Source: Pristiophorus japonicus (lineage: Eukaryota). Taken from it: DNA of 64,000 nucleotides. The stretch is from the NCBI RefSeq assembly GCF_044704955.1, contig NC_091987.1:126852001-126916000 (forward strand), read 5' to 3'. The translations under genes and the position numbers were made by a program. The notes beneath the pieces were generated by a model. It was not told where the DNA came from. It made no database searches and saw only the letters and a program-made list of their open reading frames with translations. Below, one piece after another: positions 1 through 50,600 of the stretch. The stretch's first letter is position 1. Each line of letters starts with the position of its first letter.

Positions 1-621
1 TTGGGACTGTGTGAACAGTGTGTGTGGGACTGTGTGAACAGTGTGCGTGTGGGACTGTGTGAAAAGTGCGTGTGGGACTGTGTGAACATTATGTGTGGGT
101 CTGTGTGAACAGTGTGTGTGGGACTGTGTGAGCAGTGTGTGTGTGGCACTGTGTGAACAGTGTGTGTGTGGGACTGTGTGAACAGTGTGTGTGCGACTGT
201 GTGAGCAGTGTGCGTGGGACTGTGTGCAAGGTGTGTGTTTGGGACTCTGTGAACAGTGTGTGTGGGACTGTGTGAACAGTGTGTGTGTGGGACTGTGTGA
301 GCAGTGTGTGTGGGTCTCAGGTGAACACTGTGTGTGTGTGGGACTGTGTGAACACTGTGTGTGGGTCTGTGTTGAACACTGTGTATGGGACTGTGAAAAC
401 AATATGTGTGGGACTGTGAACACTGTGTGTGTGTGCGAGACTGTGTGAACCGTGTGTGTGGGTTTGTGTTGAACACTGTGCATTGGACTGTGAAAACACT
501 GCGTGTGGGACTGTGAACACTGTGTGTGTGACTGTGTGAAAAGTGTGTGTGGGACTGTGAACACTGTTTGTGTATAACTTTGTGAACAGTGTGTGTGGGA
601 CCGTGAACACTGTGTGTGGAC

Positions 622-935
622 GAAATAACTAAAAAGAATTGCTGAGGTGACCCGAATATAGTTTGGTACTCAATACATCCAGCCAATTTAGCACTTGTAA
701 CTGAATGACAATGTCCCAAGGTTATCCGTGGGCTGTACACCTCATGATCGATCATCTGGTGACTTTTTTCGGGCTTCCGCGGCCTTCTTGAATTCTTCAA
801 GCTTCTTATAGATATTTGGAATCTGACAATTTTGGCCTAGATACATTCCCATTAGGTTTCCAAAAGTAAATCCTAACAGGATCTGAAAGATCCTTCGCTC
901 TGAACCTGGGTGTACCTGGGACCCACTCTCACCTT
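622..935 (-). pseudogene. STMP1: STMP1-like processed pseudogene, copy 1 (subfamily A)
   Basis: 891->742 translates [49 protein letters not shown], collinear with human STMP1 as recalled ([47 protein letters not shown]). ATC at the Met1 position (889-891), no introns, ~44 nt 5' flank and ~120 nt 3'UTR-like flank, no poly(A). Confidence 0.88.
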
Positions 936-2397
936 GCGTGGGACTGTGTGAACAGTGTACGTGGGATGGTGAACACTGTGTGTGGGATTGTGTGAACATT
1001 ATGCCTATAGGACTGTGTGAACACTGTGTGTGGGACAGTGTGAACAGTATGTGTGTGGGATTGTGTGAACAGTGTGTGTGGGACTGTGTGAACAATGTGT
1101 GTGGGACTGTGTGAACACTGTGTGTGGGACAGTGTGAACAGTGTGTGTGTGGGATTGTGTGAACAGTGTGTGTGGGAATGTGTGAACAGTGTGTGTGGGA
1201 CTGCGTGAAAAGAGTGTGTGGAACTGCGTGAACACTGTGTGTGGGATTTTGTGAACAGTGTGTGTGGGACTGTGTAAACAGTGTGTGTGGGACTGTATGA
1301 ACACTGAGTGTGGGATCGTGTGAATACTGTGTGTGGGACTGTGTGAACAGTGTGTGTGGGACTGTGTTGAACACTGTGTATGGGGCTGTGTAAACAATGT
1401 GTGTGGGACTGTGAGAATACTGTGTGTGGGATTTTGTGAACACATTGTGTGGGATTGTGTCAACATGGTATGTGGGACTATGTGGACACTGTGTGTGGGA
1501 TCGTGTGAATACTGTGTGTGGGACTGTGTGAACAGTTTGTGTGGGACTGTGTGAACACTGTGTGTGGGACTATCTGAACAGTATGTGTGTGGGACTGTGT
1601 GAACACTGTGTATGGGACTGCCTGAACAGTGTGTGTGGGACTGTGTGAACACTGTGTGCGGGACTGTGTGAACAATGTGTGTGGGACTGTGTGAACTGTG
1701 TGTGTGTGGGACTGTGTGAACAGTGCGTGTGGGACTGTGTGAACCCTGTGTGAGGGACTGTGTGAACAATGTGTGTGGGATAGTGTGAACAGTGTGTGTT
1801 TGGGACTGTGTGAACAGTGTGTGTGGGACTGTGTGAACAGTGTGCGTGTGGGACTGTGTGAACATTATGTGTGGGTCTGTGTGAACAGTGTGTGTGGGAC
1901 TGTGTGAGCAGTGTGTGTGTGGCACTGTGTGAACAGTGTGTGTGTGGGACTGTGTGAACAGTGTGTGTGCGACTGTGTGAGCAGTGTGCGTGGGACTGTG
2001 TGCAAGGTGTGTGTTTGGGACTCTGTGAACAGTGTGTGTGGGACTGTGTGAACAGTGTGTGTGTGGGACTGTGTGAGCAGTGTGTGTGGGTCTCAGGTGA
2101 ACACTGTGTGTGTGTGGGACTGTGTGAACACTGTGTGTGGGTCTGTGTTGAACACTGTGTATGGGACTGTGAAAACAATATGTGTGGGACTGTGAACACT
2201 GTGTGTGTGTGCGAGACTGTGTGAACTGTGTGTGTGGGTTTGTGTTGAACACTGTGCATTGGACTGTGAAAACACTGTGTGTGGGACTGTGAACACTGTG
2301 TGTGTGACTGTGTGAAAAGTGTGTGTGGGACTGTGAACACTGTTTGTGTATAACTTTGTGAACAGTGTGTGTGGGACCGTGAACACTGTGTGTGGAC

Positions 2398-2711
2398 GAA
2401 ATAACTAAAAAGAATTGCTGAGGTGACCCGAATATAGTTTGGTACTCAATACATCCAGCCAATTTAGCACTTGTAACTGAATGACAATGTCCCAAGGTTA
2501 TCCGTGGGCTGTACACCTCATGATCGATCATCTGGTGACTTTTTTCGGGCTTCCGCGGCCTTCTTGAATTCTTCAAGCTTCTTATAGATATTTGGAATCT
2601 GACAATTTTGGCCTAGATACATTCCCATTAGGTTTCCAAAAGTAAATCCTAACAGGATCTGAAAGATCCTTCGCTCTGAACCTGGGTGTACCTGGGACCC
2701 ACTCTCACCTT
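2398..2711 (-). pseudogene. STMP1: STMP1-like processed pseudogene, copy 2 (subfamily A, apparently identical to copy 1)
   Basis: CDS-homologous segment 2667->2518 gives the same translation as copy 1. Offset from copy 1 is exactly 1776 bp. ATC at the start position. Confidence 0.88.
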
Positions 2712-3440
2712 GCGTGGGACTGTGTGAACAGTGTACGTGGGATGGTGAACACTGTGTGTGGGATTGTGTGAACATTATGCCTATAGGACTGTGTGAACAC
2801 TGTGTGGGACAGTGTGAACATTATGTGTGTGGGATTGTGTGAACAGTGTGTGTGGGACTGTGTGAACAATGTGTGTGGGACTGTGTGAACACTCTGTCTG
2901 GGACTGTGAACAGACTGTGTGGGACTATGTGAACACTGTGTGTGGAACTGTGTGAACATTATGTCTGTAGGACTGTGTGAACACTGTGTGTGGGACAGTG
3001 TGAACAGTATGTGTGTGGGACTGTGTGAACAGTGTGTGTGGGACTGTGTAAAGAGTGTGTGAGGGACTGTATGAACACTGAGTGTGGGATCGTGTGAACA
3101 TTGTGTGTGGGACTGTGTGAACAGTGTCTGTGGAATTTTGTGAACACTGTGTGTGGCACTGTGTGAACATGTGAACAGTGCGTGTGGGACTGTGTGAACA
3201 TTGTGTGTGGGACTGTGTGAACAGTGTGTGTGTGGGACTGTGTGAACAGTGCGTGTGGGTCTGTGTGAACACTGTGTGAGGGACTGTGTGAACGATGTGT
3301 GTGGGACTGTGAACACTGTGTGTGAGACTGTGAACACTGTGTGTGTGACTATGTGAAAAGTGTGTGTGGGACTGTGAACACTGTTTGTGTATAACTTTGT
3401 GAACAGTGTGTGTGGGACCGTGTACACTGCGTGTGGGACT

Positions 3441-3753
3441 AAATAAATAAATAGAATTGCTGAGGTGACCCGAATACAGTTTGGTACTCAATTCATCCAG
3501 CCAATTTAGCACTTGGAACTGAATGCCAATGTCCCAAGGTTATCCTTGGGCTGCACACCTCATGATCGATCATCTGTTGGCCTTTTTCGGGCTTCCGCGG
3601 CCTTCTTGAATTCTTCAAGCTTCTTATAGATATTTGGAATCTGACAATTTTGGGCTAGATACATTCCCACTCGGTTTCTAAAAGTAAATCCGAACAGGAT
3701 CTGAAAGATCCTTCGCTCTGAACCTGGGTTTACCTGGGACCCACTCTCACCTT
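3441..3753 (-). pseudogene. STMP1: STMP1-like processed pseudogene, copy 3 (subfamily B)
   Basis: 3709->3560 translates [49 protein letters not shown]. Two arginines (R11, R13) disrupt the hydrophobic segment. ATC at the start position. Confidence 0.88.
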
Positions 3754-4860
3754 GCGTGGGACGGTGAATAGTGTTTGTGGGATTGTGTGAACAGTGTGTG
3801 TGGGACTGTGTAAACAATGTGTGTGGGACTGTATGAACACTGAGTGTGGGATCGTGTGAATACTGTGTGTGGGACTGTGTGAACAGTGTGTGTGGGACTG
3901 TGTTGAACACTGTCTATGGGGCTGTGTAAACAATGTGTGTGGGACTGTGAGAATACTGTGTGTGGGATTTTGTGAACACATTGTGTGGGATTGTGTCAAC
4001 AGGGTGTGTGGGACTCTGTGGACACTGTGTGTGGGATCGTGTGAATACTGTGTGTGGGACTGTGTGAACAGTGTGTGTTGGACTGTGTGAACACTGTGTG
4101 TGGGACTATCTGAACAGTATGTGTGTGGGACTGTGTGAACACTGTGTATGGGACTGCCTGAACAGTGTGTGTGGGACTGTGTGAACACTGTGTGAGGGAC
4201 TGTGTGAACAATGTGTGTGGGACAGTGTGAACTGTGTGTGTGTGGGACTGTGTGAACAGTGCGTGTGGGACTGTGTGAACCCTGTGTGAGGGACTGTGTG
4301 AACAATGTGTGTGGGACAGTGTGAACAGTGTGTGTTTGGGACTGTGTGAACAGTGTGTGTGGGACTGTGTGAACAGTGTGCGTGTGGGACTGTGTGAAAA
4401 GTGCGTGTGGGACTGTGTGAACATTATGTGTGGGTCTGTGTGAACAGTGTGTGTGGGACTGTGTGAACAGTGTGTGTGTGGCACTGTGTGAACAGTGTGT
4501 GTGGGACTGTGTGAACAGTGTGTGTGTGGGACTGTGTGAGCAGTGTGTGTGGGTCTCAGGTGAACACTGTGTGTGTGTGGGACTGTGTGAACACTGTGTG
4601 TGGGTCTGTGTTGAACACTGTGTATGGGACTGTGAAAACAATATGTGTGGGACTGTGCACACTGTGTGTGTGTGCGAGACTGTGTGAACTGTGTGTGTGG
4701 GTTTGTGTTGAACACTGTGCATTGGACTGTGAAAACACTGTGTGTGGGACTGTGAACACTGTGTGTGTGACTGTGTGAAAAGTGTGTGTGGGACTGTGAA
4801 CACTGTTTGTGTATTACTTTGTGAACAGTGTGTGTGGGACCGTGAACACTGTGTGTGGAT

Positions 4861-5164
4861 GAAATAACTAAAAAGAATTGCTGAGGTGACCCGAATACAG
4901 TTTGGTACTCAATACATCCAGCCAATTTAGCACTTGTAACTGAATGACAATGTCCCAAGGTTATCCGTGGGCTGTACACCTCATGATCGATCATCTGGTG
5001 ACTTTTTTCGGGCTTCCGCGGCCTTCTTGAATTCTTCAAGCTTCTTATAGATATTTGGCATCTGACAATTTTGGGCTAGATACATTCCCATTAGGTTTCC
5101 AAAAGTAAATCCTAACAGGATCTGAAAGATCCTTCGCTCTGAACCTGGGACCCACTCTCACCTT
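4861..5164 (-). pseudogene. STMP1: STMP1-like processed pseudogene, copy 4 (subfamily A, 10-bp 5' deletion)
   Basis: 5130->4981 translates [49 protein letters not shown]. Lacks tgtacctggg between the two acctggg direct repeats of the 5' flank. Confidence 0.88.
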
Positions 5165-5636
5165 GCGTGGGACTGTGTGAACAGTGTACGTGGGACGGTG
5201 AACACTGCGTGTGGGGCTGTGTGAACAGTGTGTGTGGCACTGTGTAAAGAGTGTGTGAGGGACTGTATGAACACTGAGTGTGGGATCGTATGAACATTGT
5301 GTGTGGGACTGTGTGAACAGTGTCTGTGGAATTTTGTGAACACTGTGTGTGGCACTGTGTGAACATGTGAACAGTGCGTGTGGGACTGTGTGAACACTGT
5401 GTGTGGGACTGTGTGAACAGTGTGTGTGTGGGACTGTGTGAACAGTGCGTGTGGGTCTGTGTGAACACTGTGTGAGGGACTGTGTGAACGATGTGTGTGG
5501 GACTGTGAACACTGTGTGTGAGACTGTGAACACTGTGTGTGTGACTATGTGAAAAGTGTGTGTGGGACTGTGAACACTGTTTGTGTGTAACTTTGTGAAC
5601 AGTGTGTGTGGGACCGTGTACACTGCGTGTGGGACT

Positions 5637-5949
5637 AAATAAATAAATAGAATTGCTGAGGTGACCCGAATACAGTTTGGTACTCAATTCATCCAGCCAA
5701 TTTAGCACTTGTAACTGAATGCCAATGTCCCAAGGTTATCCGTGGGCTGCACACCTCATGATCGATCATCTGTTGGCCTTTTTCAGGCTTCCGCGGCCTT
5801 CTTGAATTCTTCAAGCTTCTTATAGATATTTGGAATCTGACAATTTTGGGCTAGATACATTCCCACTAGGTTTCTAAAAGTAAATCCGAACAGGATCGGA
5901 AAGATCCTTCGCTCTGAACCTGGGTTTACCTGGGACCCACTCTCACCTT
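5637..5949 (-). pseudogene. STMP1: STMP1-like processed pseudogene, copy 5 (subfamily B, premature stop)
   Basis: 5905->5756 translates [43 protein letters not shown]->TGA nonsense at codon 41 (5783-5785), Q3P, ATC at the start position. Confidence 0.9.
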
Positions 5950-8900
5950 GCATGGGACGGTGAATAGTGTTTGTGGGATTGTGTGAACACTGTGTGTGGG
6001 ATTGTGTCTACAGTGTGTGTGGGACAGTGTGAACAGTATGTGTGTGGGACTATGTGAACAGTGTGTTTGGGACTGTGTGAACAGTCTGTGTGGGACAGCG
6101 TGAACACTGTTTGTGGGACTGTGTGAACACTGTGTGTGGGACTATGTGAACACAGTGTGGGACTGTGTGAACACTGTGTGTGGGACTGTGTGAACACTGT
6201 GTATGGATCTGTGTGAATACTGTGTATGGGACTGTGAACAGTGTGTGTGGGAGACTGTGTGAACAGTGTATGTGTGATTATGTAAACGGTGTGTGTGTGA
6301 CTGTGCGAACACCGTGTGTGGGACTGTGTGAACAGTGTGTGTGCGACTGTGTGAACACTGTGTATGTGGGACTGTGTGAATGATGTGTGTGGGACTGTTT
6401 AAACAGTGTGTGTGGGACTGTGTAGACAGTTTGTGTGAGACTTTATGAACAGTGTGTTTGCGGGACTGTGTGAACAGTGTGTGTTGGACTTAGTGAACAG
6501 TGTGTGTGGGACTGTGTGAACAATGTGTCTGGGACTGTGTGAATAGAGTGTGGGACTGTGTGAACACTGTGTGTGGGACTGTGTGAACAGTGTGTGTGGG
6601 ACTGTGTGAATAGAGTGTGGGACTGTGTGAACACTGCATGTGGGACTGTGTGAACAGTGTGTGTGGGACTGTGTAAAGAATGTGTGAGGGACTGTATGAT
6701 CACTGAGTGTGGGATCGTGTGAACACTGTGTGTGGGACTGTGTGAACAGTTTGTGTGGAACTGTGTGAACACTGTGTGTGGGACTGTGTGAACAGTGCAT
6801 GTGGGACTGTGTGAGCACTGTGTGTGGGACTTTGTGAACAATGTGTGTGGGACTGTGCGAACAATGAGTGTGTGGCTGTGTGAAAAGTGTGTGTGGGATC
6901 GTGAACACAGTGCATGTGGGACTATGTGAACACAGTGTGTGGGACTGTGTGAACACTGTGTGCGGGTCTGTGTGAACACTGTGTGTGGGTCTGTGTGAAC
7001 AGTATTTGTGTGGGACTGTGAGAATAGTGTATGAGTATTATGTGAACGGTGTGTGTGCGACTGTGCGAACACTGTGTGTGGGACTGTGTGAACAGTGTGT
7101 GTGCGACTGTGTGAACAGTGTGTGTGGGACTGTGTGAACAATGTGTGTGCGACAGTGTGAACACTGTGTATGTGGGACTGGGTGAACCATGTGTGTGGGA
7201 CTATTTGAACAGTGTGTGTGAGACTGTGTGAACAGTGTGTGTGTGTGGGGCTGTGTGAGCACGGTGTATGGGAATGTGTGAACACTTTTGGTGCGACTGT
7301 GTGAACACACTGTGTGTGGGACTGTGTGAACACTGTGTATGGGGACTGTGTAACCAGTTTGTGTGGGACTGTGAACACTGTGTGTGTGTGACTTTGTGAA
7401 CAGCGTGTGTGAGACCGTGAACACTGTGTGTGTGGGACTGTATGAACACTGTGTGTGGGGGACTATGTGAACAGTGTGGGTAGGTCTGTGTTGAACACTA
7501 CGTGTGGGACTGTGTAAACCGTGTGTGTGTGACTGTGAACAGTGTGTATGAGACTGTGTGAACACTGTTTGTGGGACTGTGTGAACAGTGTGTGTGGGAC
7601 AGTGTGAACACTGTGTGTGGGTCTGGTGAACAGTGTATGTGGGACCGTGTTGAACACTGTGTGTGCGACTGTGTGAATAGAATAGAGTGTGTGGGACTGT
7701 GTGATCAGTGAGTGTGGGACTGTGCGAACAGTGTGTGTGGGACTGTGTGAACAGTGTGTGTGGGACAATGTGAACACTGTGTGTGGGACTGTGTGAACAT
7801 TGTGTGTGGCAATGTGTGAACAGTTTCTGTGGGATGGTGTGAACAGTGTGTGTAGGACTGTGTAAACAGTGTGTGTGGGAATGTGTAAACAGTGTGTGTG
7901 GGAATGTGTGAACAGTGTGTGTGAGACTGTGTGAACAGTATCTGTGGGACTGTGTAAACAGTGTGTGTGGGACTGTGTGAACACTGTCTTATGGGACTGT
8001 GTCAACAGTGTGTGTGGGACTGTGTGAACACTGTGTGGGACTGTGTGAACACTGTTTGTGGGACTGTGCGAACACTGTGGGACTGTGTGAACAGTACGTG
8101 TGAGATTATACGAACAGTGTGTGTGTGACTGTGTGAACACTGTGTGTGGGACTGTGTGAACAGTATGTGTACGACTGTGTGAGCACTGTGTGTGGAACTG
8201 TTTGAACACTGTGTATGGGACTGTGTGAACAATGTTTGTGCGACTGTGTGAACACTGTGTGTTGGACTGTGTGAACAATGTGTCTGGGACTGTTTGAACA
8301 GTGTGTGTGGGACTGTGTACACAGTGTGTATGGGGCTGTGTGATCACTTTGTCTGTAGGACTGTGTTAACACTGTGTGTGGGACAGTGTGAACAGTGTGT
8401 GTGTGGGACTGTGTGAACAGTGTGTGTGTGACTGTGTGAACAGTGTGTGTGGAACTGTGTGAATAGAGTGTGGGACTGTGTGAACAGTGTGTGTGACACT
8501 GTGTAAAGAGTGTGTGAGGGAGTATGAACACTGAGTGTGGGACTGTGTAAACAGTGTGTGTGGGTCTGTGAACACTGTGTGTGTGTGACTGTGTGAAAAG
8601 TGTGTGTGGGACTGTGTGTATAACTTTGTGAACAATGTGTGTGGTACCATGAACACAATGTGTGTGGGACTGTGTGAACACTGTTTGTGGGACTGTGTGA
8701 ACAGTGTGTGTGGGATTGTGTGAACAGTGTGTGTGGGATCGTGTGAACACTGTGTGTGGGATTGTGTGAACAGTGTGTGTATGACTGTGTGAACACTGTG
8801 TGTGGGATTGTGTGAACGGTGTGTGTGGGACTGTGTAAACAGCATGTATGTGTGGGACTGTGTTCACAGAGTGTGTGGGATTTTGTGAACACTGTTTGTG

Positions 8901-9526
8901 GAGCTATGTGAACACAGTGTGGGACTGTGTGAACACTGTGTGTGGGTCTGTGTGAACACTGTGTGTGGGACTGTGTAGTGTGTGGGACTGTGTGAACAGT
9001 GTATGTGTGATTATGTGAACAGTGCGTGTGTGATTGTGCGAAAACTGTGTGTGGGGCTGTGTGAACAGTGTGTATGCGATTGTGTGAACACTGTGTATGT
9101 GGGACTGTGTGAACGATGTGTGTGGGACTGTTTGAACAGTTTGTGTGGGACTGTGTGAACAGTGTGTGTGTGGGACTGTGTGAACAGCGTGTGTGGGTTT
9201 GTGTGAACACTGTGTATGGAACTGTGTGAACAGTGCGTGTGGGACAGTGTGAACAGTGTGTGTGTGGGACTGTGTGAACAATGTGTGTGGAACTGTGAGA
9301 ACAATGTGTGTGGGACTCTGCGATCACTGTGTGTGTGACTGTATGAACAATGTGTGTGGGACTGCGTGAACAGTGTACGTGGGACTGTGTGAATTCTGTA
9401 TGTGAGACTGCGTGAACACTGTGTGTGGGACTATGTGAACACTGTGTGTGGGACTGTGTGAACACTGTGTGTATATAACTTTGTGAACAGTGTGTGTGGG
9501 ACATTGAACACAGTGTGTGTGGGACT

Positions 9527-9839
9527 AAATAAAATAATAGAATTGCTGAGATGACCAGAATACAGTTTGGTACTCAATTCATCCATCCAATTTAGCACTT
9601 GTAACTGAATGCCAATGTCCCAAGGTTATCCATGGGCTGTACACCACATGATCGATCATCTGGTGGCCTTTTTCGGGCTTCCGCAGCCTTATTGAATTGT
9701 TCAAGCTTCTTATAGATATTTGGAATCTGATAATTTTGGGCTAGATACATTCCCACTAGGTTTCTAAAAGTAAATCCGAACAGGATCTGAAAGATCCTTC
9801 GCTCTGAACCTGGGTGTACCTGGGCCCCACTCTCACCTT
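9527..9839 (-). pseudogene. STMP1: STMP1-like processed pseudogene, copy 6 (subfamily B-like, stop codon lost)
   Basis: 9795->9646 translates [49 protein letters not shown]. The stop TGA->TGT (9646-9648) reads through [18 protein letters not shown] to TAA at 9592-9594. Retains the ancestral-type YLAQNY and PP motifs. Confidence 0.88.
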
Positions 9840-12800
9840 GCGTGGGACTGTGTGAACAGTGTACGTGGGACGGTGAACACTGTGTGTGGGATATTGTGAA
9901 CTCTGTGCGTGGGACTGTGTGAACACTATGTGTGGAACTGCGTGAACACAGTGTGAAGAACTGTGTCAACAGTGTGTGTGGAAATGTGTGAACACTGTGT
10001 ATGGGACTATGTGAGTAGTATGTGTACGACTGTGTGAACACTGTGTGTAACTGTGCGAACAGTGTGTGCGTGGGACTGTGTGAACAGTGTGTGCATGGGA
10101 CTGTGTGAACAGTGTATATGTGATTGCGTGAACACTGTGTGTGGGACTGCGTGAAGAGTGTGCGACTGTGTGAACAGTGTGTGTGGGACTGTATGAACAC
10201 TGAGTGTGGGACTGTGTGAACAGTGCGCGTGTGACTGTATGAACAGTGTGTGTGAAACTGTGGGAACACTGTGTGTGTGACTGTGTGAACAATGTGTGTG
10301 GGACTGTGTGAATACTGTGCATGGGACGGTGTGAACAGTGTGTGCGGGACTGTGTGAACAGTGTGTGTGGGACAGTGTGAACAGTGTGTGTGGGACTGTG
10401 TGGGCAGTTTGTGTGGGACTGTGTGAACAGTGTGTGTGGGACTGTGTGAACAGTGTGTGTGGGATTTTGTGAACAATGTGTGTGGGACTGTGTGAACAGT
10501 GTGTGTGTGGGAGTGTGTGCAGAGTGTGTGTGGGTCTGTGTTGAACGCTGTGTATGGGACTGTGTCAACAGTGTGTGTGTGGGACTGTGTGAACAGTGCG
10601 TGTGGGACTGTGTGAACACTGTGTGAGGGACTGTGTGAACAGTGTATGTGTGATTATGTGAACGGTGTGTGTGCGACTATGTGAACACTGTGTGTGGGAC
10701 TATGCGAACAGTTTGTGTGCGACTGTGTGGACAGTTTATGTGAGACTGTGTGAACAGTGTGTGTGTGGAACTGTGTGAACAGTGTGTGTGGGACTTTGTG
10801 AAAAGTGTGTGTGTGTGTGTGGGACTATGTGATCAGTGAGTGTGGGAATGTGTGAACTCTTTTTATGCAACTGTTTGAACAGTGTGTGTGGGTCTCAGTT
10901 GAACAGTGTGTGTGGGTCTGTGTAAACAGTGTGTGTGGGACTGTGAACACTGTATATGTGTGACTTTGTGAATAGTGTGTGTGAGACGGTGAACAGTGTG
11001 TGTGGGACTGTGTGAACATCGTGTGTGGGACTGTGCGAACATTGTGTGTGGGACTGCGTGAACAGTGCGTGTGTGTGTGGGATTGTGTGCACAATGTGTG
11101 TGGGACTGTGTGAACAGTGTCTGTGGGATATTGTGAACACTGTGTGTGGGACTGTGTCAACACTGTGTGTGGGACTGTGTCAACAGTGTGTGTGTGACTG
11201 TGCGAACACTGTGTGTGTGACTTTATGAACAGTGTGTGTGGTACAGTGTGGACAGTGTGTGTGTAGGTCTGTGTGAACAGTGTGTGGGGGACTGTGTGAA
11301 AAGTGTGTGTGGGACTGTGTGAACAGTGAGTGTGGGACTGTGTGAACACTATGTCTGGGACTCTGTGAACAGTGTCTGTGGGATATTGTGAACACTGTGT
11401 GTGGGACTGTGTGAACACTGTGTGTGCGACTCTGCGATCACTGTGTGTGTGACTGTATGAATAGTGTGTGTGGGACAGTGTGAACAGTGTGTGTGTGGGA
11501 CTGCGTGAACAGTGTGTGTGGGACAGTGTGAACAGTGTGTGTGGAACTGTGTGAACTGTGTGTGCGGGACTGTGTGAATAGAGTGTGGGACTGTGTGAAC
11601 AGTGTGTGTGGTTTTGTGTGAATAGAGTGTGGGACTGTGTGAACACTGCATGTGGGACTGTGTAAACAGTGTGTGTGGGACTGTATGAACACTGAGTGTG
11701 GGATCATGTGAATACTGTGTCTGGAACTGTGTGAACACTGTGTGTGGGACTGTGTTGAACACTGTTTGTGGGACTGTGTGAACAGTATGTGTATGTGGGA
11801 CTGTGTGAACACTGTGTGTGGGACAGTGTGAACAAAGTGTGTGGGACAGTGTGAACAGAGTGTGTGTGGGACTGTGTGAACAGTGTGTGTGAGACTGTAT
11901 GAACAGTGCATGTGGGACTTTGAGAATACTGTGTGTGGGATTTTGTGAACAGAGTGTGTGGGATTGTGTCAACACTGTGTGTGGGACTGTGTGAACAGTA
12001 TGTGTGTGTGCGACTGTGTGTACAGTGTGTTTGGGACTGTGTGAACAATGTGTGTGGGACTCTGCGATCACTGTGTGTGTGACTGTATGAATAGTGTGTG
12101 TGGGATAGTGTGAACAGTGTGTGTGTGGGACTGCGTGAACAGTGTGTGTGGGACAGTGTGAACAGTGTGTGTGGAACTGTGTGAACTGTGTGTGCGGGAC
12201 TGTGTGAATAGAGTGTGGGACTGTGTGAACAGTGTGTGTGGTTCTGTGTGAATAGTGTGGGGGACTGTGTTGAACACTGTGGGACAGTGTGAACATTATG
12301 TGTGTGTTGGACTGTGTGAACACTGTGTGTGGGACTGTGTGAACAAAGTGTGTGGGACAGTGTGAACAGAGTGTGTGTGGGACTGTGTGAACAGTGTGTG
12401 TGAGACTGTATGAACAGTGCATGTGGGACTTTGAGAATACTGTGTGTGGGATTTTGTGAACAGTGTGTTGGATTGTGTCAACACTGTGTGTGGGACTGTG
12501 TGAACAGTATGTGTGTGTGCGACTGTATGCACAGTGTGTGTGGGACTGTGTGAACAATGTGTGTGGGACTCTGTGAACATTGTGTGTGCGGCACTGTGTG
12601 AACACTATGTGAACGGTGTGTGTGTGGGACTGTGTGAACAGTGTGTGTGGGACTGTGTGAGCAGTGTGTGTGCGTCTCAGGTGAACACTGTGTATGGCAC
12701 TGTGAAAACAGTGTGTGTGGGACTGTGAACACTGTGTTTGTGTGACTGTGTGAACAGTGTATGTGGGTCTGTGTTGAACACTGTGTATGGGACTGTGAAA

Positions 12801-38760: not shown

Positions 38761-41700
38761 GTGAACAGTGTGTGTGGGACTGTGGGAAAGTGCGTGTGTA
38801 TGTGGGATTGTGTGCACAGTGTGTGTGGGACTGTGTGAACAGTGTCTGTGGAATATTGTGAACACTGTGTGTGGGACTGTGCGAACACTGTGTATGGGAC
38901 TGTGTCAACAGTGTGTGTGCAACTGTGTGAACACTATGTGTGGGACTGTGTGAACAATGTGTGTGGGAGTGTGAGCACTGTGTATGTGTGTGACTGTGTG
39001 AACAGTATGTGTGGGACCATGAACATTATATGTGTGAGAATATATGAACAGTGTGTGTGGGACTGTGAACACTGTGTTTAGGACTGTGTGAACACTATTT
39101 CTGGGACTGTGTGAATAGTGTGTGTGAGACTGCGTGAACACTGTGTGTGACCGTGTGAACAGCGTGTGTGGGACTGTGTGAACAGTGTGTGTGGGACTGT
39201 GTGAACACTGTCTGTGGGACTGTGTGAACAGTGTGTGTGAGACTGTGTGAACAGTGCATGTGGGACTGTAAGAATACTGTGTGTGGGATTTTGTGAACAC
39301 AGTGTGTGGGATTTTGTGAACAATGTGTGTGGGACTGTGTGAACACTGTGTATTAGACTATGTGAACAGTGTTTGTGTGACTGTGTGAACAGTGAGAGTG
39401 GGGCTGTGTGAACACCGTGTGTGTATAACTTTGTGAACAATGTGTGTGGGACCGTGAGCACAGTGTGTGTAGGACTACGTGAACAGTGTGTGTGGGACTG
39501 TGAACACTGTGTGTGGGACTGTGTGAACAGTATGTGTTCTGGGACTGAGTGCACAGTGTGTGTGGGACTGTGTGAACAGTGTGTGTGGAACTGTGTGAAC
39601 AATATGTTTGGGACTCTGCGAACACTGTGTGTGTGACTGTATGAACCGTGTGTGTGTGACAATGTGAACAGTGTGTATGGGTCTATGTGAACAGTGTGTG
39701 GGTGACTGCATAAATAGTGTATGTGGGACTGTGTGAATAGAGTGTGGGACTGTGTGGACACTGCATGTGGGACTGTGTAAACAGTGTGTGTGGCACTGTA
39801 TGAACATTGCGTGTGGGTCTCAGTTGAACAATGTGTGTGGGACTGTGTAAACAGTGTATGTGGGACTGTGAACACTGTGTGTGTGTGACATTGTGAACAG
39901 TGTTTGTGGGACCGTCAACACTGTGTGTGTGTGTGACTGTGTGCACAGTGTGTGTGGGTCTGTGTTGAACACTGTGTATGGGACTGTGTAAATAGTGTGT
40001 GTGGGACTGTGAACACTGTGTGTGTGTGACTTTGTGAACAGTGTGTGTGGGACCATCAACACTGTGTGTGTGGTGCTAACAGTGTAGGTGGGACGGTGAA
40101 CACTGTGTGTAGGACTGTGTGAACAGTGTGTGTGGGACTGTATGAACAGTGCACGTGTGTGTGTGATTGTGTGCACAGTGTGTGTGGGACTGTGTGAGCA
40201 CTGTGTCTGGGACTGTGTGAATAGTGTCTGTGGTATATTGCGAACACTGTGTGTGGGACTTTTTGAACACTGTATGTGGGACTGTGTCAACAGTGTGTGT
40301 GGGACTGTGTCAACACTGTATATGGGACTGTGTGAACACTATGTGTGGGACTGTGCGAACACTGTGTATGGGACTGTGTCAACAGTGTGTGTGCAACTGT
40401 GTGAACACTATGTGTGGGACTGTGTGAACAATGTGTGTGGGAGTGTGAGCACTGTGTATGTGTGTGACTGTGTGAACAGTGTATGTGGGACCATGAACAT
40501 TATATGTGTGAGAATATATGAACAGTGTGTGTGGGACTGTGAACACTGTGTTTAGGACTGTGTGAACACTATTTCTGGGACTGTGTGAATAGTGTGTGTG
40601 GGACTGCGTGAACACTGTGTGTGTGACCGTGTGAACAGTGTGTGTGGGACTGTGTGAAAAGTGTGTGTGGGACTGTGTGAACACTGTCTGTGGGACTGTG
40701 TGAACAGTGTGTGTGAGACTGTGTGAACAGTGCATGTGGGACTGTGAGAATACTGTGTGTGGGATTTTGTGAACACAGTGTGTGGGATTTTGTGAACAAT
40801 GTGTGTGGGACTGTGTGAACACTGTGTATTAGACTATGTGAACAGTGTTTGTGTGACTGTGTGAACAGTGAGAGTGGGGCTGTGTGAACACCGTGTGTGT
40901 ATAACTTTGTGAACAATGTGTGTGGGACCGTGAGCACAGTGTGTGTGGGACTACGTGAACAGTGTGTGTGGGACTGTGAACACTGTGTGTGGGACTGTGT
41001 GAACAGTGTGTGTGAGACTGTGTGAACCGTGCGTGTGGGACTGTGTGAACCGTGCGTGTGGGATTTTATTAACACTGTGTGTGGGATTGTATAAACAGAG
41101 TGTGTGGGACTGTGTGAACACTTTGTGTGGGCCTGTGTGAACATTGTGTGTGGGACTGTGTGAACAGTACGTGTTCTGGGACTGAGTGCACAGTGTGTGT
41201 GGGACTGTGTGAACAGTGTGCGTGGAACTGTGTGAACAATATGTTTGGGACTCTGCGAACACTGTGTGTGTGACTGTATGAACCGTATGTGTGTGACAAT
41301 GTGAACAGTGTGTATGGGTCTGTGTGAACAGTGTGTGGGTGACTGCATAAATAGTGTATGTGGGACTGTGTGAATAGAGTGTGGGACTGTGTGGACACTG
41401 CATGTTGGACTGTGTAAACAGTGTGTGTGGCACTGTATGAACATTGCGTGTGGGTCTCAGTTGAACAATGTGTGTGGGACTGTGTAAACAGTGTATGTGG
41501 GACTGTGAACACTGTGTGTGTGTGACATTGTGAACAGTGTTTGTGGGACCGTCAACACTGTGTGTGTGTGTGACTGTGTGCACAGTGTGTGTGGGTCTGT
41601 GTTGAACACTGTGTATGGGACTGTGTAAATAGTGTGTGTGGGACTGTGAACACTGTGTGTGTGTGACTTTGTGAACAGTGTGTGTGGGACCATCAACACT

Positions 41701-44700
41701 GTGTGTGTGGTGCTAACAGTGTAGGTGGGACGGTGAACACTGTGTGTAGGACTGTGTGAACAGTGTGTGGGGGACTGCATAAATAGTGTATGTGGGACTG
41801 TGTGAATAGAGTGTGGGACTGTGTGGACACTGCATGTGGGACTGTGTAAACAGTGTGTGTGGCACTGTATGAACATTGCGTGTGGGTCTCAGTTGAACAA
41901 TGTGTGTGGGACTGTGTAAACAGTGTATGTGGGACTGTGAACACTGTGTGTGTGTGACATTGTGAACAGTGTTTGTGGGACCGTCAACACTGTGTGTGTG
42001 TGTGACTGTGTGCACAGTGTGTGTGGGTCTGTGTTGAACACTGTGTATGGGACTGTGTAAATAGTGTGTGTGGGACTGTGAACACTGTGTGTGTGTGACT
42101 TTGTGAACAGTGTGTGTGGGACCATCAACACTGTGTGTGTGGTGCTAACAGTGTAGGTGGGACGGTGAACACTGTGTGTAGGACTGTGTGAACAGTGTGT
42201 GTGGGACTGTATGAACAGTGCACGTGTGTGTGTGATTGTGTGCACAGTGTGTGTGGGACTGTGTGAGCACTGTGTCTGGGACTGTGTGAATAGTGTCTGT
42301 GGTATATTGCGAACACTGTGTGTGGGACTTGTTGAACACTGTATGTGGGACTGTGTCAACAGTGTGTGTGGGACTGTGTCAACACTGTATATGGGACTGT
42401 GTGAACACTATGTGTGGGACTGTGCGAACACTGTGTATGGGACTGTGTCAACAGTGTGTGTGCAACTGTGTGAACACTATGTGTGGGACTGTGTGAACAA
42501 TGTGTGTGGGAGTGTGAGCACTGTGTATGTGTGTGACTGTGTGAACAGTGTGTGTGGGACCATGAACATTATATGTGTGAGAATATATGAACAGTGTGTG
42601 TGGGACTGTGAACACTGTGTCTAGGACTGTGTGAACACTATTTCTGGGACTGTGTGAATAGTGTGTGTGGGACTGCGTGAACACTGTGTGTGTGACCGTG
42701 TGAACAGTGTGTGTGGGACTGTGTGAAAAGTGTGTGTGGGACTGTGTGAACACTGTCTGTGGGACTGTGTGAACAGTGTGTGTGAGACTGTGTGAACAGT
42801 GCATGTGGGACTGTGAGAATACTGTGTGTGGGATTTTGTGAACACAGTGTGTGGGATTTTGTGAACAATGTGTGTGGGACTGTGTGAACACTGTGTATTA
42901 GACTATGTGAACAGTGTTTGTGTGACTGTGTGAACAGTGAGAGTGGGGCTGTGTGAACACCGTGTGTGTATAACTTTGTGAACAATGTGTGTGGGACCGT
43001 GAGCACAGTGTGTGTGGGACTACGTGAACAGTGTGTGTGGGACTGTGAACACTGTGTGTGGGACTGTGTGAACAGTGTGTGTGAGACTGTGTGAAGAGTG
43101 CGTGTGGGACTGTGTGAACCGTGCGTGTGGGATTTTATTAACACTGTGTGTGGGATTGTATAAACAGAGTGTGTGGGACTGTGTGAACACTTTGTGTGGG
43201 CCTGTGTGAACATTGTGTGTGGGACTGTGTGAACAGTACGTGTTCTGGGACTGAGTGCACAGTGTGTGTGGGACTGTGTGAACAGTGTGCGTGGAACTGT
43301 GTGAACAATATGTTTGGGACTCTGCGAACACTGTGTGTGTGACTGTATGAACCGTATGTGTGTGACAATGTGAACAGTGTGTATGGGTCTGTGTGAACAG
43401 TGTGTGGGGGACTGCATAAATAGTGTATGTGGGACTGTGTGAATAGAGTGTGGGACTGTGTGGACACTGCATGTGGGACTGTGTAAACAGTGTGTGTGGC
43501 ACTGTATGAACATTGCGTGTGGGTCTCAGTTGAACAATGTGTGTGGGACTGTGTAAACAGTGTATGTGGGACTGTGAACACTGTGTGTGTGTGACATTGT
43601 GAACAGTGTTTGTGGGACCGTCAACACTGTGTGTGTGTGTGACTGTGTGCACAGTGTGTGTGGGTCTGTGTTGAACACTGTGTATGGGACTGTGTAAATA
43701 GTGTGTGTGGGACTGTGAACACTGTGTGTGTGTGACTTTGTGAACAGTGTGTGTGGGACCATCAACACTGTGTGTGTGGTGCTAACAGTGTAGGTGGGAC
43801 GGTGAACACTGTGTGTAGGACTGTGTGAACAGTGTGTGTGGGACTGTATGAACAGTGCACGTGTGTGTGTGATTGTGTGCACAGTGTGTGTGGGACTGTG
43901 TGAGCACTGTGTCTGGGACTGTGTGAATAGTGTCTGTGGTATATTGCGAACACTGTGTGTGGGACTTTTTGAACACTGTATGTGGGACTGTGTCAACAGT
44001 GTGTGTGGGACTGTGTCAACACTGTATATGGGACTGTGTGAACAGTGTGTGTGCAACTGTGTGAACACTGTGTGTGGGACAGTCTCAAACGTGTGTGAGG
44101 GACTGCGTGAACACTGTGTGTGGGATCGTGTGAATACTGTTTTGGGACTGTGTGAACAGTGTGTGTGGGATTGTGTGCACAGTGTGTGTGGGATTGTGTG
44201 CACAGTGTGTGTGGGACTGTGTGAACAATGTGTGTGGGACTGTGTGAAGCGTGTGTGTGGGTCATTGTTAACAGTGTGTGTGGGAATATGTGAACACTGT
44301 GTGTGGGATTGTGTGAACACTGTGTGTGGGATTGTGTGAACACTGTGTGTAGGATTGTGTTAACAGTGTCGCTGTGACTTTGTGAACAGTGTCTGTGGGA
44401 CTGTGTGAACATTGTGTGTGGGACTGTGTGAACACTGTCTGTGCGACAGTGTGAACAGTGTGTGTGGGACTTTGTGAACACTGTGTGTGGGACTGTGTGA
44501 ACACTGTGTGCGGGACTGTGAGATCTTTGTGTGTGATACTGTGTGAACACTGTGTATGGGACTGTGTGAACAGTGTGTGTGGGACTGTGTGAAGAGTGTG
44601 TGTGGGACTGCGTGAACCATGTGTGTGGGACTGTTTGAACAGTGTGTGTGAGACTATGTGAACCGTGTGTGCATGATTCTGTGAACACAGTGTGTGGGTC

Positions 44701-45940
44701 TGTGTTGAACACTGTGTATGGGACTGTGTAAACAGTGTGTGTGGGACTGTGAATACTATGTGTGTGTGACTTTGTGGAACAGTCTGTATGCGACCGTGAA
44801 CACTGTGTGTGTGGGACTGTGTGAATAGTGTGTGTGGGTGTAGGATTGTGTGCAAAGTGTGTGTAGGACTGTATGAACACTGTGTGTGGGACTGTGTGAA
44901 CATTGTCTGTGGGATTTTGTGAACACTGTGTGGGACTGTGTGAACAATGTGTGTGGGAATGTGCCAACCGTGTGTGTGGGACTGTGTGAATGTGTATGGG
45001 ACTGTGTGAACGGTGTGTGTGGGACAGTGTGAACAGTATGTGTGGGGGACTATGTGAACAGTATGTATGTGACTGTGTGAACAGTGTGTGTGGGTCTGTC
45101 TTGAACACTGTGTATGGGACTGTGTCAACAGTGTGTGTGCAACTGTGTGAACACTATGTGTGGGACTGTGTGAACAATGTGTGTGGGAGTGTGAGCACTG
45201 TGTATGTGTGTGACTGTGTGAACAGTGTGTGTGGGACCATGAACATTATATGTGTGAGAATATATGAACAGTGTGTGTGGGACTGTGAACACTGTGTTTA
45301 GGACTGTGTGAACACTATTTCTGGGACTGTGTGAATAGTGTGTGTGGGACTGCGTGAACATTGTGTGTGTGACCGTGTGAACAGTGTGTGTGGGACTGTG
45401 TGAATAGTATGTGTGTGTGGGACTGTGTGAACAGTGTGTGTGGGACTGTGTGAACACTGTCTGTGGGACTGTGTGAACAGTGTGTGTGAGACTGTGTGAA
45501 CAGTGCATGTGGGACTGTGAGAATACTGTGTGTGAGATTTTGTGAACACAGTGTGTGGGATTTTGTGAACAATGTGTGTGGGACTGTGTGAACACTGTGT
45601 ATTAGACTATGTGAACAGTGTTTGTGTGACTGTGTGAACAGTGAGAGTGGGGCTGTGTGAACACCGTGTGTGTATAACTTTGTGAACAATGTGTGTGGGA
45701 CCGTGAGCACAGTGTGTGTGGGACTACGTGAACAGTGTGTGTGGGACTGTGAACACTGTGTGTGGGACTGTGTGAACAGTGTGTGTGAGACTGTGTGAAG
45801 AGTGCGTGTGGGACTGTGTGAACCGTGCGTGTGGGATTTTATTAACACTGTGTGTGGGATTGTATAAACAGAGTGTGTGGGACTGTGTGAACACTTTGTG
45901 TGGGCCTGTGTGAACATTGTGTGTGGGACTGTGTGAACAG

Positions 45941-46136
45941 TATGTGTTCTGGGACTGAGTGCACAGTGTGTGTGGGACTGTGTGAACAGTATGTGTTCTG
46001 GGACTGAGTGCACAGTGTGTGTGGGACTGTGTGAACAGTATGTGTTCTGGGACTGAGTGCACAGTGTGTGTGGGACTGTGTGAACAGTATGTGTTCTGGG
46101 ACTGAGTGCACAGTGTGTGTGGGACTGTGTGAACAG
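45941..46136. repeat. 49-bp VNTR x4 (tatgtgttctgggactgagtgcacagtgtgtgtgggactgtgtgaacag)
   Basis: Perfect copies start at 45941, 45990, 46039 and 46088. Confidence 0.92.
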
Positions 46137-47361
46137 TGTGCATGGAACTGTGTGAACAATATGTTTGGGACTCTGCGAACACTGTGTGTGTGACTGTATG
46201 AACAGTGTGTGTGTGACAATGTGAACAGTGTGTATGGGTCTGTGTGAACAGTGTGTGGGGGACTGCATAAATAGTGTATGTGGGACTGTGTGAATAGAGT
46301 GTGGGACTGTGTGGACACTGCATGTGGGACTGTGTAAACAGTGTGTGTGGCACTGTATGAACATTGCGTGTGGGTCTCAGTTGAACAATGTGTGTGGGAC
46401 TGTGTAAACAGTGTATGTGGGACTGTGAACACTGTGTGTGTGTGACATTGTGAACAGTGTTTGTGGGACCGTCAACACTGTGTGTGTGTGTGACTGTGTG
46501 CACAGTGTGTGTGGGTCTGTGTTGAACACTGTGTATGGGACTGTGTCAACAGTGTGTGTGCAACTGTGTGAACACTATGTGTGGGATTGTGTGAACAATG
46601 TGTGTGGGAGTGTGAGCACTGTGTATGTGTGTGACTGTGTGAACAGTGTGTGTGGGACCATGAACATTATATGTGTGAGAATATATGAACAGTGTGTGTG
46701 GGACTGTGAACACTGTGTTTAGGACTGTGTGAACACTATTTCTGGGACTGTGTGAATAGTGTGTGTGGGACTGCGTGAACACTGTGTGTGTGACCGTGTG
46801 AACAGTGTGTGTGGGACTGTGTGAATAGTATGTGTGTGTGGGACTGTGTGAACAGTGTGTGTGGGACTGTGTGAACACTGTCTGTGGGACTGTGTGAACA
46901 GTGTGTGTGAGACTGTGTGAACAGTGCATGTGGGACTGTGAGAATACTGTGTGTGGGATTTTGTGAACACAGTGTGTGGGATTTTGTGAACAATGTGTGT
47001 GGGACTGTGTGAACACTGTGTATTAGACTATGTGAACAGTGTTTGTGTGACTGTGTGAACAGTGAGAGTGGGGCTGTGTGAACACCGTGTGTGTATAACT
47101 TTGTGAACAATGTGTGTGGGACCGTGAGCACAGTGTGTGTGGGACTACGTGAACAGTGTGTGTGGGACTGTGAACACTGTGTGTGGGACTGTGTGAACAG
47201 TGTGTGTGAGACTGTGTGAAGAGTGCGTGTGGGACTGTGTGAACCGTGCGTGTGGGATTTTATTAACACTGTGTGTGGGATTGTATAAACAGAGTGTGTG
47301 GGACTGTGTGAACACTTTGTGTGGGCCTGTGTGAACATTGTGTGTGGGACTGTGTGAACAG

Positions 47362-47606
47362 TATGTGTTCTGGGACTGAGTGCACAGTGTGTGTGGGACT
47401 GTGTGAACAGTATGTGTTCTGGGACTGAGTGCACAGTGTGTGTGGGACTGTGTGAACAGTATGTGTTCTGGGACTGAGTGCACAGTGTGTGTGGGACTGT
47501 GTGAACAGTATGTGTTCTGGGACTGAGTGCACAGTGTGTGTGGGACTGTGTGAACAGTATGTGTTCTGGGACTGAGTGCACAGTGTGTGTGGGACTGTGT
47601 GAACAG
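47362..47606. repeat. 49-bp VNTR x5 (same unit)
   Basis: Perfect copies start at 47362, 47411, 47460, 47509 and 47558. Confidence 0.92.
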
Positions 47607-50600
47607 TGTGCGTGGAACTGTGTGAACAATATGTTTGGGACTCTGCGAACACTGTGTGTGTGACTGTATGAACAGTGTGTGTGTGACAATGTGAACAGTG
47701 TGTATGGGTCTGTGTGAACAGTGTGTGGGGGACTGCATAAATAGTGTATGTGGGACTGTGTGAATAGAGTGTGGGACTGTGTGGACACTGCATGTGGGAC
47801 TGTGTAAACAGTGTGTGTGGCACTGTATGAACATTGCGTGTGGGTCTCAGTTGAACAATGTGTGTGGGACTGTGTAAACAGTGTATGTGGGACTGTGAAC
47901 ACTGTGTGTGTGTGAAATTGTGAACAGTGTTTGTGGGACCGTCAACACTGTGTGTGTGTGTGACTGTGTTCACAGTGTGTGTGGGTCTGTGTTGAACACT
48001 GTGTATGGGACTGTGTAAATAGTGTGTGTGGGAATGTGAACACTGTGTGTGTGTGACTTTGTGAACAGTGTGTGTGGGACCATCAACATTGTGTGTGTGG
48101 TGCTAACAGTGTAGGTGGGACGGTGAACACTGTGTGTAGGACTGTGTGAACAATGTGTGTGGGACTGTGTGAGCACTGTGTCTGGGACTGTGTGAATAGT
48201 GTCTGGGGCATATTGCGAACACTGTGTGTGGGACTTTTTGAACACTGTGTGTGGGACTGTGCCAACAGTGTGTGTGGGACTGTGTCAACACTGTATATGG
48301 GACTGTGTGAACAGTGTGTGTGCAACTGTGTGAACACTGTGTGTGGGACAGTCTCAAAAGTGTGTGAGGGACTGCGTGAACACTGTGTGTGGGATCGTGT
48401 GAATACTGTGTTGGGACTGTGTGAACAGTGTGTGTGGGATTGTGTGCACAGTGTGTGTGGGATTGTGTGCACAGTGTGTGTGGGACTGTGTGAAGCGTGT
48501 GTGTGGGTCATTGTTAACAGTGTGTGTGGGAATATGTGAACACTGTGGGTGGGATTGTGTGAACACTGTGTGTGGGATTGTGTGAACACTGTGTGTAGGA
48601 TTGTGTTAACAGTGTCACTGTGACTTTGTGAACAGTGTCTGTGGGACTGTGTGAACATTGTGTGTGGGACTGTGTGAACACTGTCTGTGCGACAGTGTGA
48701 ACAGTGTGTGTGGGACTGTGTGAACACTGTGTACGGGACTGTGAGATCTCTGTGTGTGATACTGTGTGAACACTGTGTATGGGACTGTGTGAACAGTGTG
48801 TGTGGGACTGTGTGAAGAGTGTGTGTGGGACTGCGTGAACCATGTGTGTGGGACTGTTTGAACAGTGTGTGTGAGACTATGTGAACCGTGTGTGCATGAT
48901 TCTGTGAACACAGTGTGTGGGTCTGTGTTGAACACTGTGTATGGGACTGTGTAAACAGTGTGTGTGGGACTGTGAATACTATGTGTGTGTGACTTTGTGG
49001 AACAGTCTGTATGCGACCATGAACACTGTGTGTGTGGGACTGTGTGAATAGTGTGTGTGGGTGTAGGATTGTGTGCAAAGTGTGTGTAGGACTGTATGAA
49101 CACTGTGTGTGGGACTGTGTGAACATTGTCTGTGGGATTTTGTGAACACTGTGTGGGACTGTGTGAACAATGTGTGTGGGAATGTGCCAACCGTGTGTGT
49201 GGGACTGTGTGAATGTGTATGGGACTGTGTGAACAGTGTGTGTGGGACAGTGTGAACAGTATGTGTGGGGGACTATGTGAACAGTATGTATGTGACTGTG
49301 TGAACAGTGTGTGTGGGATTGTGTGAACAGTGTGTGTGGGACTGTGTGAATAGAGTGTGGGACTGTGTGAACACTGTGTGTGGGACTGTGTAAACAGTGT
49401 GTGTGGGACAGTGTGAACAGTATGTGTGTATGGGTCTGTGTGAGCAGTGTGTGTGGGACTGTGTGAACACTGTCTATGGGACTGTGTGAACAGTGTGTGT
49501 GAGACTGTGTGAACAGTGCGTGTGGGACTGTAAGAATACTGTGTGTGGGATTTTGTGAACACAGTGTGTGGGATTGTGTAAACAGAGTGTGTGGGACTGT
49601 GTGAACACTGTGTGTGGGACTGTGTGAACACTGTGTGTGGGACTGTGTGAACAGTATGTGTGGGACTGAGAGCACAGTGTGTGTGTGACTGTGTGAAAAG
49701 TGTCTGTGGGATTTTGTGAACAATGTGTGTGGGACTGTGTGAACACTGTGTATGAGACTATGTGAACAGTGTTTGTGTGACTGTGTGAACAGTGAGAGTG
49801 GGACTGTGTGAACACCGTGTGTGTATAACTTTGTGAACAATGTGTGTGGGACCGTGAGCACAGTGTGCGTGGGACTATATGAACAGTGTGTGTGGGACTG
49901 TGAACACTATGTGTGTGACTGTGTGAACAGTGTGTGTGGGTCTGTCTTGAACACTGTGTATGGGACTGTGTAAACAGTGTATGTGGGACTGTGAACACTA
50001 TGTGTGTGACTGTGTGAACAGTGTGTGTGGGTCTGTCTTGAACACTGTGTATGGGACTGTGTAAACAGTGTATGTGGGACTGTGAACACTGTGTGTGTGT
50101 GACATTGTGAACAGTGTGTGTGGGACATTGAACACTGTGTGTGGGACTGTGTGAACATTGTGTGTGGGACTGTGTGAACAGTGTGTGTGGGACTGTGTGA
50201 ACAGTGTGTGTGTGTGTGGGATTGTGTGCACAGTGTGTGTGGGACTGTGTCAACAGTGTGTGCGGGACTGTGTGAATACTGTGTATGGGACTGTGTGAAC
50301 AGTGTGTGTGCAACTGTGTGAACACTGTGTGTGGGACTGTGTGAACAGTGTGTATGGGACAGTGTGAACAGTGTATGTGAGACTGTGTGAACAGTGTGTG
50401 TGGGACTGTGTGAACAGTGTATGTGGAACTGTGTGAACAGTATGTGTGGGGCTGTGTGAACATTGTGTCTGGGATGCTGTGAACAGTGACTGTGTAATAT
50501 TGTGAACACTGTGTGTGGGACTGTGTGAATATTGTGTGTAGGACTGTGTGCACAGTGTGTGTGGGACTGTGTGAACACAGTGTGAAGGACTGTGTGAACA

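Follow-up and report, generated by a model that had tools for sequence, protein, structure and literature searches.

Six start-less, decaying copies of part of an STMP1 message in a 23-bp satellite of Pristiophorus japonicus, likely from one reverse-transcribed insertion

Here we surveyed a 23-bp satellite array of the shark Pristiophorus japonicus and analyzed the six islands which are interspersed in it. These islands are very probably start-less and decaying copies of a part of the STMP1 message, which likely go back to a single reverse-transcribed insertion, with unequal exchange as the likely cause of their passive multiplication. Judged from their sequence, they are dead pseudogene passengers and not intact genes, and the six copies likely make no STMP1 protein. 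The preliminary description of this DNA had presented a captured gene; what multiplied was instead a pseudogene which had lost its start codon beforehand.

The search was done by blastn with positions 622-935 as query against the window, that is, the whole stretch of 64,000 nucleotides that was analyzed. Exactly six matches were returned (622-935, 2398-2711, 3441-3753, 4861-5164, 5637-5949 and 9527-9839), which are 92.7-100% identical with E of 1e-132 or better. All six islands (about 315 bp) lie on the minus strand with a common 5′ junction, and no large gap interrupts their alignment except in copy 4, whose 5′ part is 10 bp shorter. The 3′ junction is of two types, one found in copies 1, 2 and 4 and the other in copies 3, 5 and 6. 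TRF reported period 23 with 2736 copies over 938-64000, and when all 64,000 bases were scanned for satellite words, no non-satellite stretches other than the six islands were found. Hence the earlier statement that six minus-strand islands are the sole non-satellite DNA was upheld by both searches, while its addition that they have essentially the same two junctions holds for the 5′ junction, the 3′ one being of two types. Low-count stretches at 10821, 14401, 30381 and 61781 were considered as further islands and rejected, each being degenerate satellite in the same scan. The array and the islands are as follows.

1 to 64000, no strand: host array of the 23-bp satellite with local kb-scale higher-order duplications (TRF and duplication search)
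622 to 939, minus strand: copy 1, likely processed STMP1 fragment with part of the 5′ UTR, a 49-codon frame at 742-891 (ATC first) and about 120 nt of 3′ UTR; 938-939 fit parent and satellite alike
2398 to 2715, minus strand: copy 2, with 0 differences from copy 1 within the island
3441 to 3757, minus strand: copy 3, frame 3560-3709, no start, G11R and L13R; equal to UniRef P0005 over 49 codons
4861 to 5168, minus strand: copy 4, frame 4981-5130, no start, 5′ UTR shorter by 10 bp; equal to UniRef P0004 over 49 codons
5637 to 5953, minus strand: copy 5, no start at codon 1, premature stop TGA at codon 41 (5783-5785)
9527 to 9843, minus strand: copy 6, the most diverged; no start, stop lost (9646-9648) and 18 further codons to 9592

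The identity with STMP1, which had been proposed from the sequence, was confirmed by a DUF4535 (PF15054) match in all six copy translations (E 1.4e-7 to 2.4e-4; only copy 6 lies above the curated cut-off). Copy 1 aligns end to end with STMP1 of the whale shark Rhincodon typus with 37 of 49 residues identical (76%) and I against M at position 1, and 98 relatives were found at E<=0.001. The islands therefore resemble STMP1 / DUF4535 genes in their 49-residue frame and its identity to the whale shark protein, but differ from them in having no start codon, in the loss of conserved residues, in the missing intron and in showing no sign of purifying selection. An intact-length 49-codon frame had been credited to every island, which is not what was found: codon 1 is ATC in all six copies where the parent has ATG, only four of the six are open over 49 codons to the stop, copy 5 is interrupted at codon 41 and the stop is missing from copy 6.

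For the parent gene, contigs of four of the 24 listed runs were compared with 622-937, namely X3 (DNA), X5, X6 and X8; the list contains no run recorded as RNA. X5 and X6 share their organism code with the best-matching DNA runs and are transcript-like by size and continuity, though not on record as RNA; X8 comes from another organism, and its RNA status is a guess which is likewise not on record. From X5 and from X6 came one contig each, which spans 626-910 and has 17 differences from the island; the single contig of X8 spans 626-932. The letter which makes ATG at codon 1 is present in all three. Two positions of copy 1 are of importance here.

889 to 891, minus strand: lost start codon, ATC against the parental ATG, in six of six copies; site 889 differs in runs X5, X6 and X8, and whale shark STMP1 has M here
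876 to 877, minus strand: likely exon-exon junction at codon 5/6; the island is unbroken, and the DNA contig of X3 departs at 877 into a pyrimidine tract and CAG

At 877 a DNA contig of X3 leaves the island for a stretch which is rich in pyrimidines and, on the sense strand, closes with CAG; we take it to be a splice acceptor, whereas the same position is crossed in one piece by the island and by the transcript-like contigs of X5, X6 and X8. Since the X3 contig turns acceptor-like where the island runs on, a parental intron is likely missing from the island. This intron likely lies after codon 5 of the parent STMP1, to which we assign it by inference. One intron position only is indicated, by one X3 contig, and a second intron was seen in none of these contigs; the mRNA origin proposed earlier is thus supported through one lost intron, and the whole exon map is not indicated. 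Each copy has 11-16 differences from the X5 contig in 245 letters, and the parent contigs extend 165-499 letters past the 3′ junction of the island, which is likely a spliced, 3′-truncated and tailless fragment of STMP1 mRNA. The X5 and X6 contigs carry parent alleles and are silent on the transcription of the copies, as contigs cannot show absence.

Some further observations were made on the same contigs. An X3 contig joins the STMP1 3′ UTR at 749 to 25 unrelated letters which are not splice-acceptor-like; this is possibly a separate 5′-truncated STMP1 copy elsewhere, or chance. Another X3 contig (record 1), over 622-707, carries the parental letters of sites 659 and 675 next to a 3′ junction of the copy 1 type, a mix absent from the six copies, and may be a further copy or an assembler mosaic. 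A 10-bp tandem repeat of the 5′ UTR at 911-920 is present in five of the six copies and missing from copy 4 and from the X5 and X6 parent contigs, while X8 aligns across it without a gap; its gain or loss may have occurred twice. A metagenome scan with a 23-letter stretch of the 3′ UTR gave 0 hits.

The ends of the islands were analyzed for traces of the insertion. On the 5′ side, parent-like sequence continues up to about 939 and satellite follows, four of five letters being common at the join. On the 3′ side, the alignment with the parent reaches 626, and roughly 3 additional letters stand before the satellite. None of the six islands has an A-tract or a sense-strand AATAAA or ATTAAA, and the end falls inside the 3′ UTR; this shortened 3′ end without poly(A) was not part of the preliminary description. 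The following two features are located at the copy 6 junction.

9519 to 9526, plus strand: left member of an 8-bp direct repeat around copy 6, with its right member at 9842-9849; it resembles a target-site duplication and consists of 6 bp plus another 2 bp which the parent has as well
9537 to 9543, minus strand: ATTCTAT, which agrees with ATTCTRTG (the octamer of avian CR1) in its first 7 letters and lies 10 nt from the 3′ junction; two more instances are at 3451-3457 and 5647-5653

In a tandem satellite every shift of phase mimics a duplication, so that only the short length of this 6-8-bp repeat is informative. The insertion site CACAC/AGTCCC is the commonest satellite context and not the L1 target, which is given as TT/AAAA in PMC5322556.

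As the first step of the origin we consider it probable that target-primed reverse transcription by a LINE enzyme was primed inside the 3′ UTR. A LINE-type reverse transcriptase (the enzyme is deduced, and intron loss comes from one contig) would have copied a spliced STMP1 mRNA where the satellite was nicked, starting within the 3′ UTR and not at the poly(A) tail; its traces would be the 6-8-bp direct repeat, the 5′ microhomology of 4 of 5 letters and the roughly 3 additional letters at the 3′ junction. Tailless retropseudogenes of therians, as described in PMC5322556, are similar in being 3′-truncated, without oligo(A) and with a short flanking direct repeat, and internal priming was proposed for them. 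They differ in that L1, priming at A-rich stretches, is held responsible for them and their duplications are of 8-30 nt, whereas the STMP1 island has a U-rich end and a repeat of 6-8 bp.

A variant of this step, which is possible but doubtful, is that a CR1 enzyme, normally acting on its own RNA only, took the STMP1 mRNA through a CR1-like octamer of the 3′ UTR and copied from there, which would account both for the lack of poly(A) and for where the 3′ end was cut. ATTCTAT stands at the same distance from the junction in three of the six copies, copy 6 has a second near-match after it, the direct repeat is short, and the chance of ATTCTRT within 25 positions is 0.006, as computed after the motif had been noticed. 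However, against the avian consensus the octamer matches at 7/8 in copies 3, 5 and 6 and at 6/8 in copies 1, 2 and 4, and the chance becomes 0.11 when one mismatch is allowed. A hairpin upstream of the octamer was not above shuffles in five of five 3′-end folds (z -0.32 to -1.07), which were made on decayed copies and not on the parent. The parent alignment reaches 8 letters beyond ATTCTAT, with five of the 17 X5 differences unlisted and near the alignment ends, and the parental letters at the motif itself are not visible. Shark CR1 (HER1/HE1) may use the octamer ATTCTRTG, but in the literature searched such use is unconfirmed; the available text of PMC4494074 and PMC1513397 has no shark CR1 tail sequence, and a table of PMC3747384 names HE1/HER1 as a SINE/LINE pair. 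In birds, CR1 has the tail ATTCTRTG, preceded by a hairpin (PMC8665684, PMC4316615); both a 3′ hairpin and the microsatellite ATTCTRTG are described as requirements of CR1 recognition (PMC8665684), and CR1-group elements make up 22-34% of elasmobranch genomes (PMC13343379); but CR1 is held not to mobilise mRNAs, a claim carried second-hand (PMC8665684, PMC5470649).

The islands are like CR1 LINE insertions and CR1-mobilised SINEs in the tailless 3′ end near an octamer-like motif and in the short direct repeat, and unlike them in lacking a significant hairpin, in the imperfect motif of three of the six copies and in their cargo, a cellular mRNA. If CR1 recognition of a chance CR1-like octamer did set the 3′ end, this would be a natural exception to the strict self-recognition of CR1, and sharks would be predicted to have a class of tailless retrocopies cut at an octamer motif. 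It would also make it possible to test whether the sequence requirement of CR1 accounts for the scarcity of retrocopies in CR1-dominated genomes, by revealing the rare mRNAs which pass it.

A second variant, which we regard as rather unlikely, dispenses with internal LINE priming: end-joining repair of a double-strand break in the satellite took up the spliced RNA or its cDNA, or a full-length retrocopy with poly(A) was later trimmed by deletion. The missing tail, the truncation of both ends relative to the parent contigs, the 5′ microhomology with a few extra letters at the 3′ junction and the frequent exchange in satellites are all in favour of it. It is opposed by the neat flank offset of 6-8 bp on both junction types, such as a target-primed insertion leaves (by chance about 0.3 in a 23-bp unit, as an estimate), and by the documentation of tailless retrocopies by internal priming in PMC5322556. 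Copying of the island into the satellite at the DNA level from an earlier STMP1 retrocopy elsewhere is very unlikely; three mutations are older than all copies and the X3 join at 749 is possibly another copy, but neither junction has a foreign flank and at the 5′ end parent-like sequence goes straight into satellite.

Reverse transcription primed inside the 3′ UTR is thus kept as the preferred first step, and the second step can be followed in the copies themselves. Sites 782, 882 and 889 are derived in all six copies in comparison with X5, and with X8 as the second reference, and correspond to D37A, F4I and M1I. As these three are common to the six copies, the founder lost its ATG and gained F4I and D37A before duplication, and was already start-less when it multiplied; the three shared mutations also bear out the single insertion which had been suggested earlier.

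The frame has since decayed. Over codons 1-50 the copies have 18 changing differences and 1 silent, and the X5 and X8 genes have 1 changing and 4 silent between them (Fisher p=0.002, positions 646-890 scored). The 18:1 ratio is somewhat above neutral expectation, with p 0.07 at 79% changing sites and 0.016-0.03 at 72-75%, an excess which under neutrality would have to be put down to chance. The density of changes is similar in the frame (19 in 150) and in the 3′ UTR (10 in 96), and it is the silent class alone which is low; positive selection on the copies was accordingly rejected as unproven. Together with the loss of the start, the gain of one stop and the loss of another, the 18:1 ratio is read here as neutral decay without purifying selection, which is the last step of the history. 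Among 97 aligned relatives the changed residues are conserved (G11 88/96, V14 86/95, A19 93/96, Y22 87/96, D37 89/96 and P44 90/97), in a set which includes likely pseudogene products and has M at position 1 in only 41/96. In three of the six copies Gly is changed to Arg within the likely membrane segment.

Database proteins were compared with the copies. Three UniRef "STMP1-like" proteins from the indexed search are labelled Pristiophorus japonicus, and there are four such entries in all. P0004 and P0005 correspond to copies 4 and 3 as listed above, and P0007 to an 85-codon frame of copies 1 and 2.

742 to 999, minus strand: 85-codon open frame of copy 1 from an ATG within satellite, product identical to UniRef P0007; the equivalent of copy 2 is at 2518-2775

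P0006 is equal to none of the six copies and yet has their I1, I4 and A37, so that at least a seventh copy, or a copy of the other haplotype, exists; the earlier expectation of further copies, though not of their place upstream of the window, is supported by this entry, with a hint from X3 depth. The N-terminus is satellite-derived and different in each database model, and automatic gene models have been placed on the copies. One dead insertion likely gave rise to all four proteins as artefacts. Neither indexed protein search yielded the parent protein of the sawshark: three of three candidates in one are copy models, and the one passing match (of 3) in the other is from whale shark. That the copies are an amplified family of functional retrogenes with an N-terminally extended or altered STMP1, as these entries imply, is highly improbable. 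The four entries, the 85-codon frame from a satellite ATG and the excess of amino-acid changes would fit such a family; it is contradicted by the start lost in all six copies, by the stop gained in one and lost in another, by the Gly to Arg change in three of the six and by the differing satellite-derived N-termini of the models.

In the third step, blocks of island and satellite of 0.7-1 kb would have been duplicated repeatedly. The flanks common to the copies, at 98.8-99.8%, agree with the earlier view of a passenger multiplied with its satellite, and three duplicated blocks, none of them assigned a strand, were traced.

66 to 1030, repeated at 1842-2806: 965 bp, 99.8% identical, copy 1 with its flanks (copies 1 and 2)
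248 to 910, repeated at 4487-5149: 663 bp, 98.8% identical (copies 1 and 4; 98.8-99.1% for copy 1 or 2 and copy 4)
3043 to 3755, repeated at 5239-5951: 713 bp, 98.9% identical (copies 3 and 5)

Positions 2-621 are 98.2% identical to 1776-2397, and the window therefore begins inside the block which precedes copy 2, as had been noticed before. An ungapped left flank of 557, 457, 457 or 429 bases is shared in four of the 15 copy pairs, whereas satellite pairs drawn at random in the same phase have their 99th percentile at 134; the other 11 pairs have no long ungapped left flank in common, and older duplications are not traceable block by block. The shared flanks and the three founder mutations together indicate that one already damaged insertion likely spread by unequal exchange. 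The island-free 54 kb shows the same sort of kb-scale duplications, so that no special mechanism has to be invoked for the island.

The copies fall in two groups, 1/2/4 and 3/5/6, with 15-24 differences between them, 0-3 within the first and 5-17 within the second; the largest divergence is 24 of 316 letters, and copies 1 and 2 are identical. The duplications would therefore range from an early split to very recent events. Site 827 groups copies 1-5 against 6, sites 861 and 874 group copies 3, 5 and 6, and with the parent all four combinations are present, a conflict which suggests exchange between copies (crossover or conversion) or repeated mutation. In X3 the contig depth at 861-874 is 114.4 for the island type and 10.8 for the intron-bearing type, a ratio of 10.6 (three subtractions). 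This ratio is not a copy number, and as the assembly itself may have been made from the X3 sample, it counts only as a hint against inflation. Inflation of one or two real copies by the assembly is the least credible reading, for although copies 1 and 2 are identical inside the island, 14 of the 15 pairs differ by 3-24 letters, the flanks of copies 1 and 2 are 98.2-99.8% alike and not identical, and the X3 contigs contain the two types of 3′ junction as well as copy-specific alleles, with the depth ratio as the said hint.

A retrocopy which is later multiplied with its surrounding DNA is an already known kind of event, of which the STMP1 islands are a further example. Retrotransposition followed by multiplication at the DNA level has been described for elephant TP53RTG (PMC5061548), equid LCORL (PMC10249811) and great-ape CICP (PMC13015009), the last located near centromeres and telomeres and having an annotation problem (PMC13015009). 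These cases have in common with the islands one RNA-derived insertion, many copies, shared junctions and flanks, and inflated annotation. They differ in that the STMP1 unit is 0.8-3.9 kb in a short-period satellite and not a large segmental duplication, that its host is a shark, and that the copy was start-less before its spread; TP53RTG and LCORL copies, in contrast, are argued to be expressed (PMC5061548, PMC10249811). No paper on STMP1 copies in sharks was found in the literature searched, most subscription papers being outside that search. Copy counts taken from annotation would wrongly suggest an expansion of the STMP1 gene family. The unique island can also be used as an internal marker for the turnover of the 23-bp satellite, as it records a split early on, recent duplications which left nearly identical copies, and exchange among the copies.

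The satellite itself was also profiled. Its island-free part is composed of local domains of higher-order duplication with 98-100% identity, each limited to its own stretch: in 15100-38800 the duplication offsets are about 2.9, 3.4 and 6.2 kb, in 38900-48200 they are 1.4-2.1 kb, and in 57900-63200 they are 653 bp and 3.4 kb. An Rfam scan of window positions 1-12000 gave 0 matches at E<=1. The minus strand of the satellite is stop-poor, with His/Thr-rich open frames of up to 508 codons (1005-2531, 3996-4994 and 8344-9504), which are likely a source of false gene models. A plus-strand AATAAA is present at the junction of copies 3, 5 and 6 (3442, 5638 and 9528) and could serve as a terminator for satellite transcripts antisense to STMP1.
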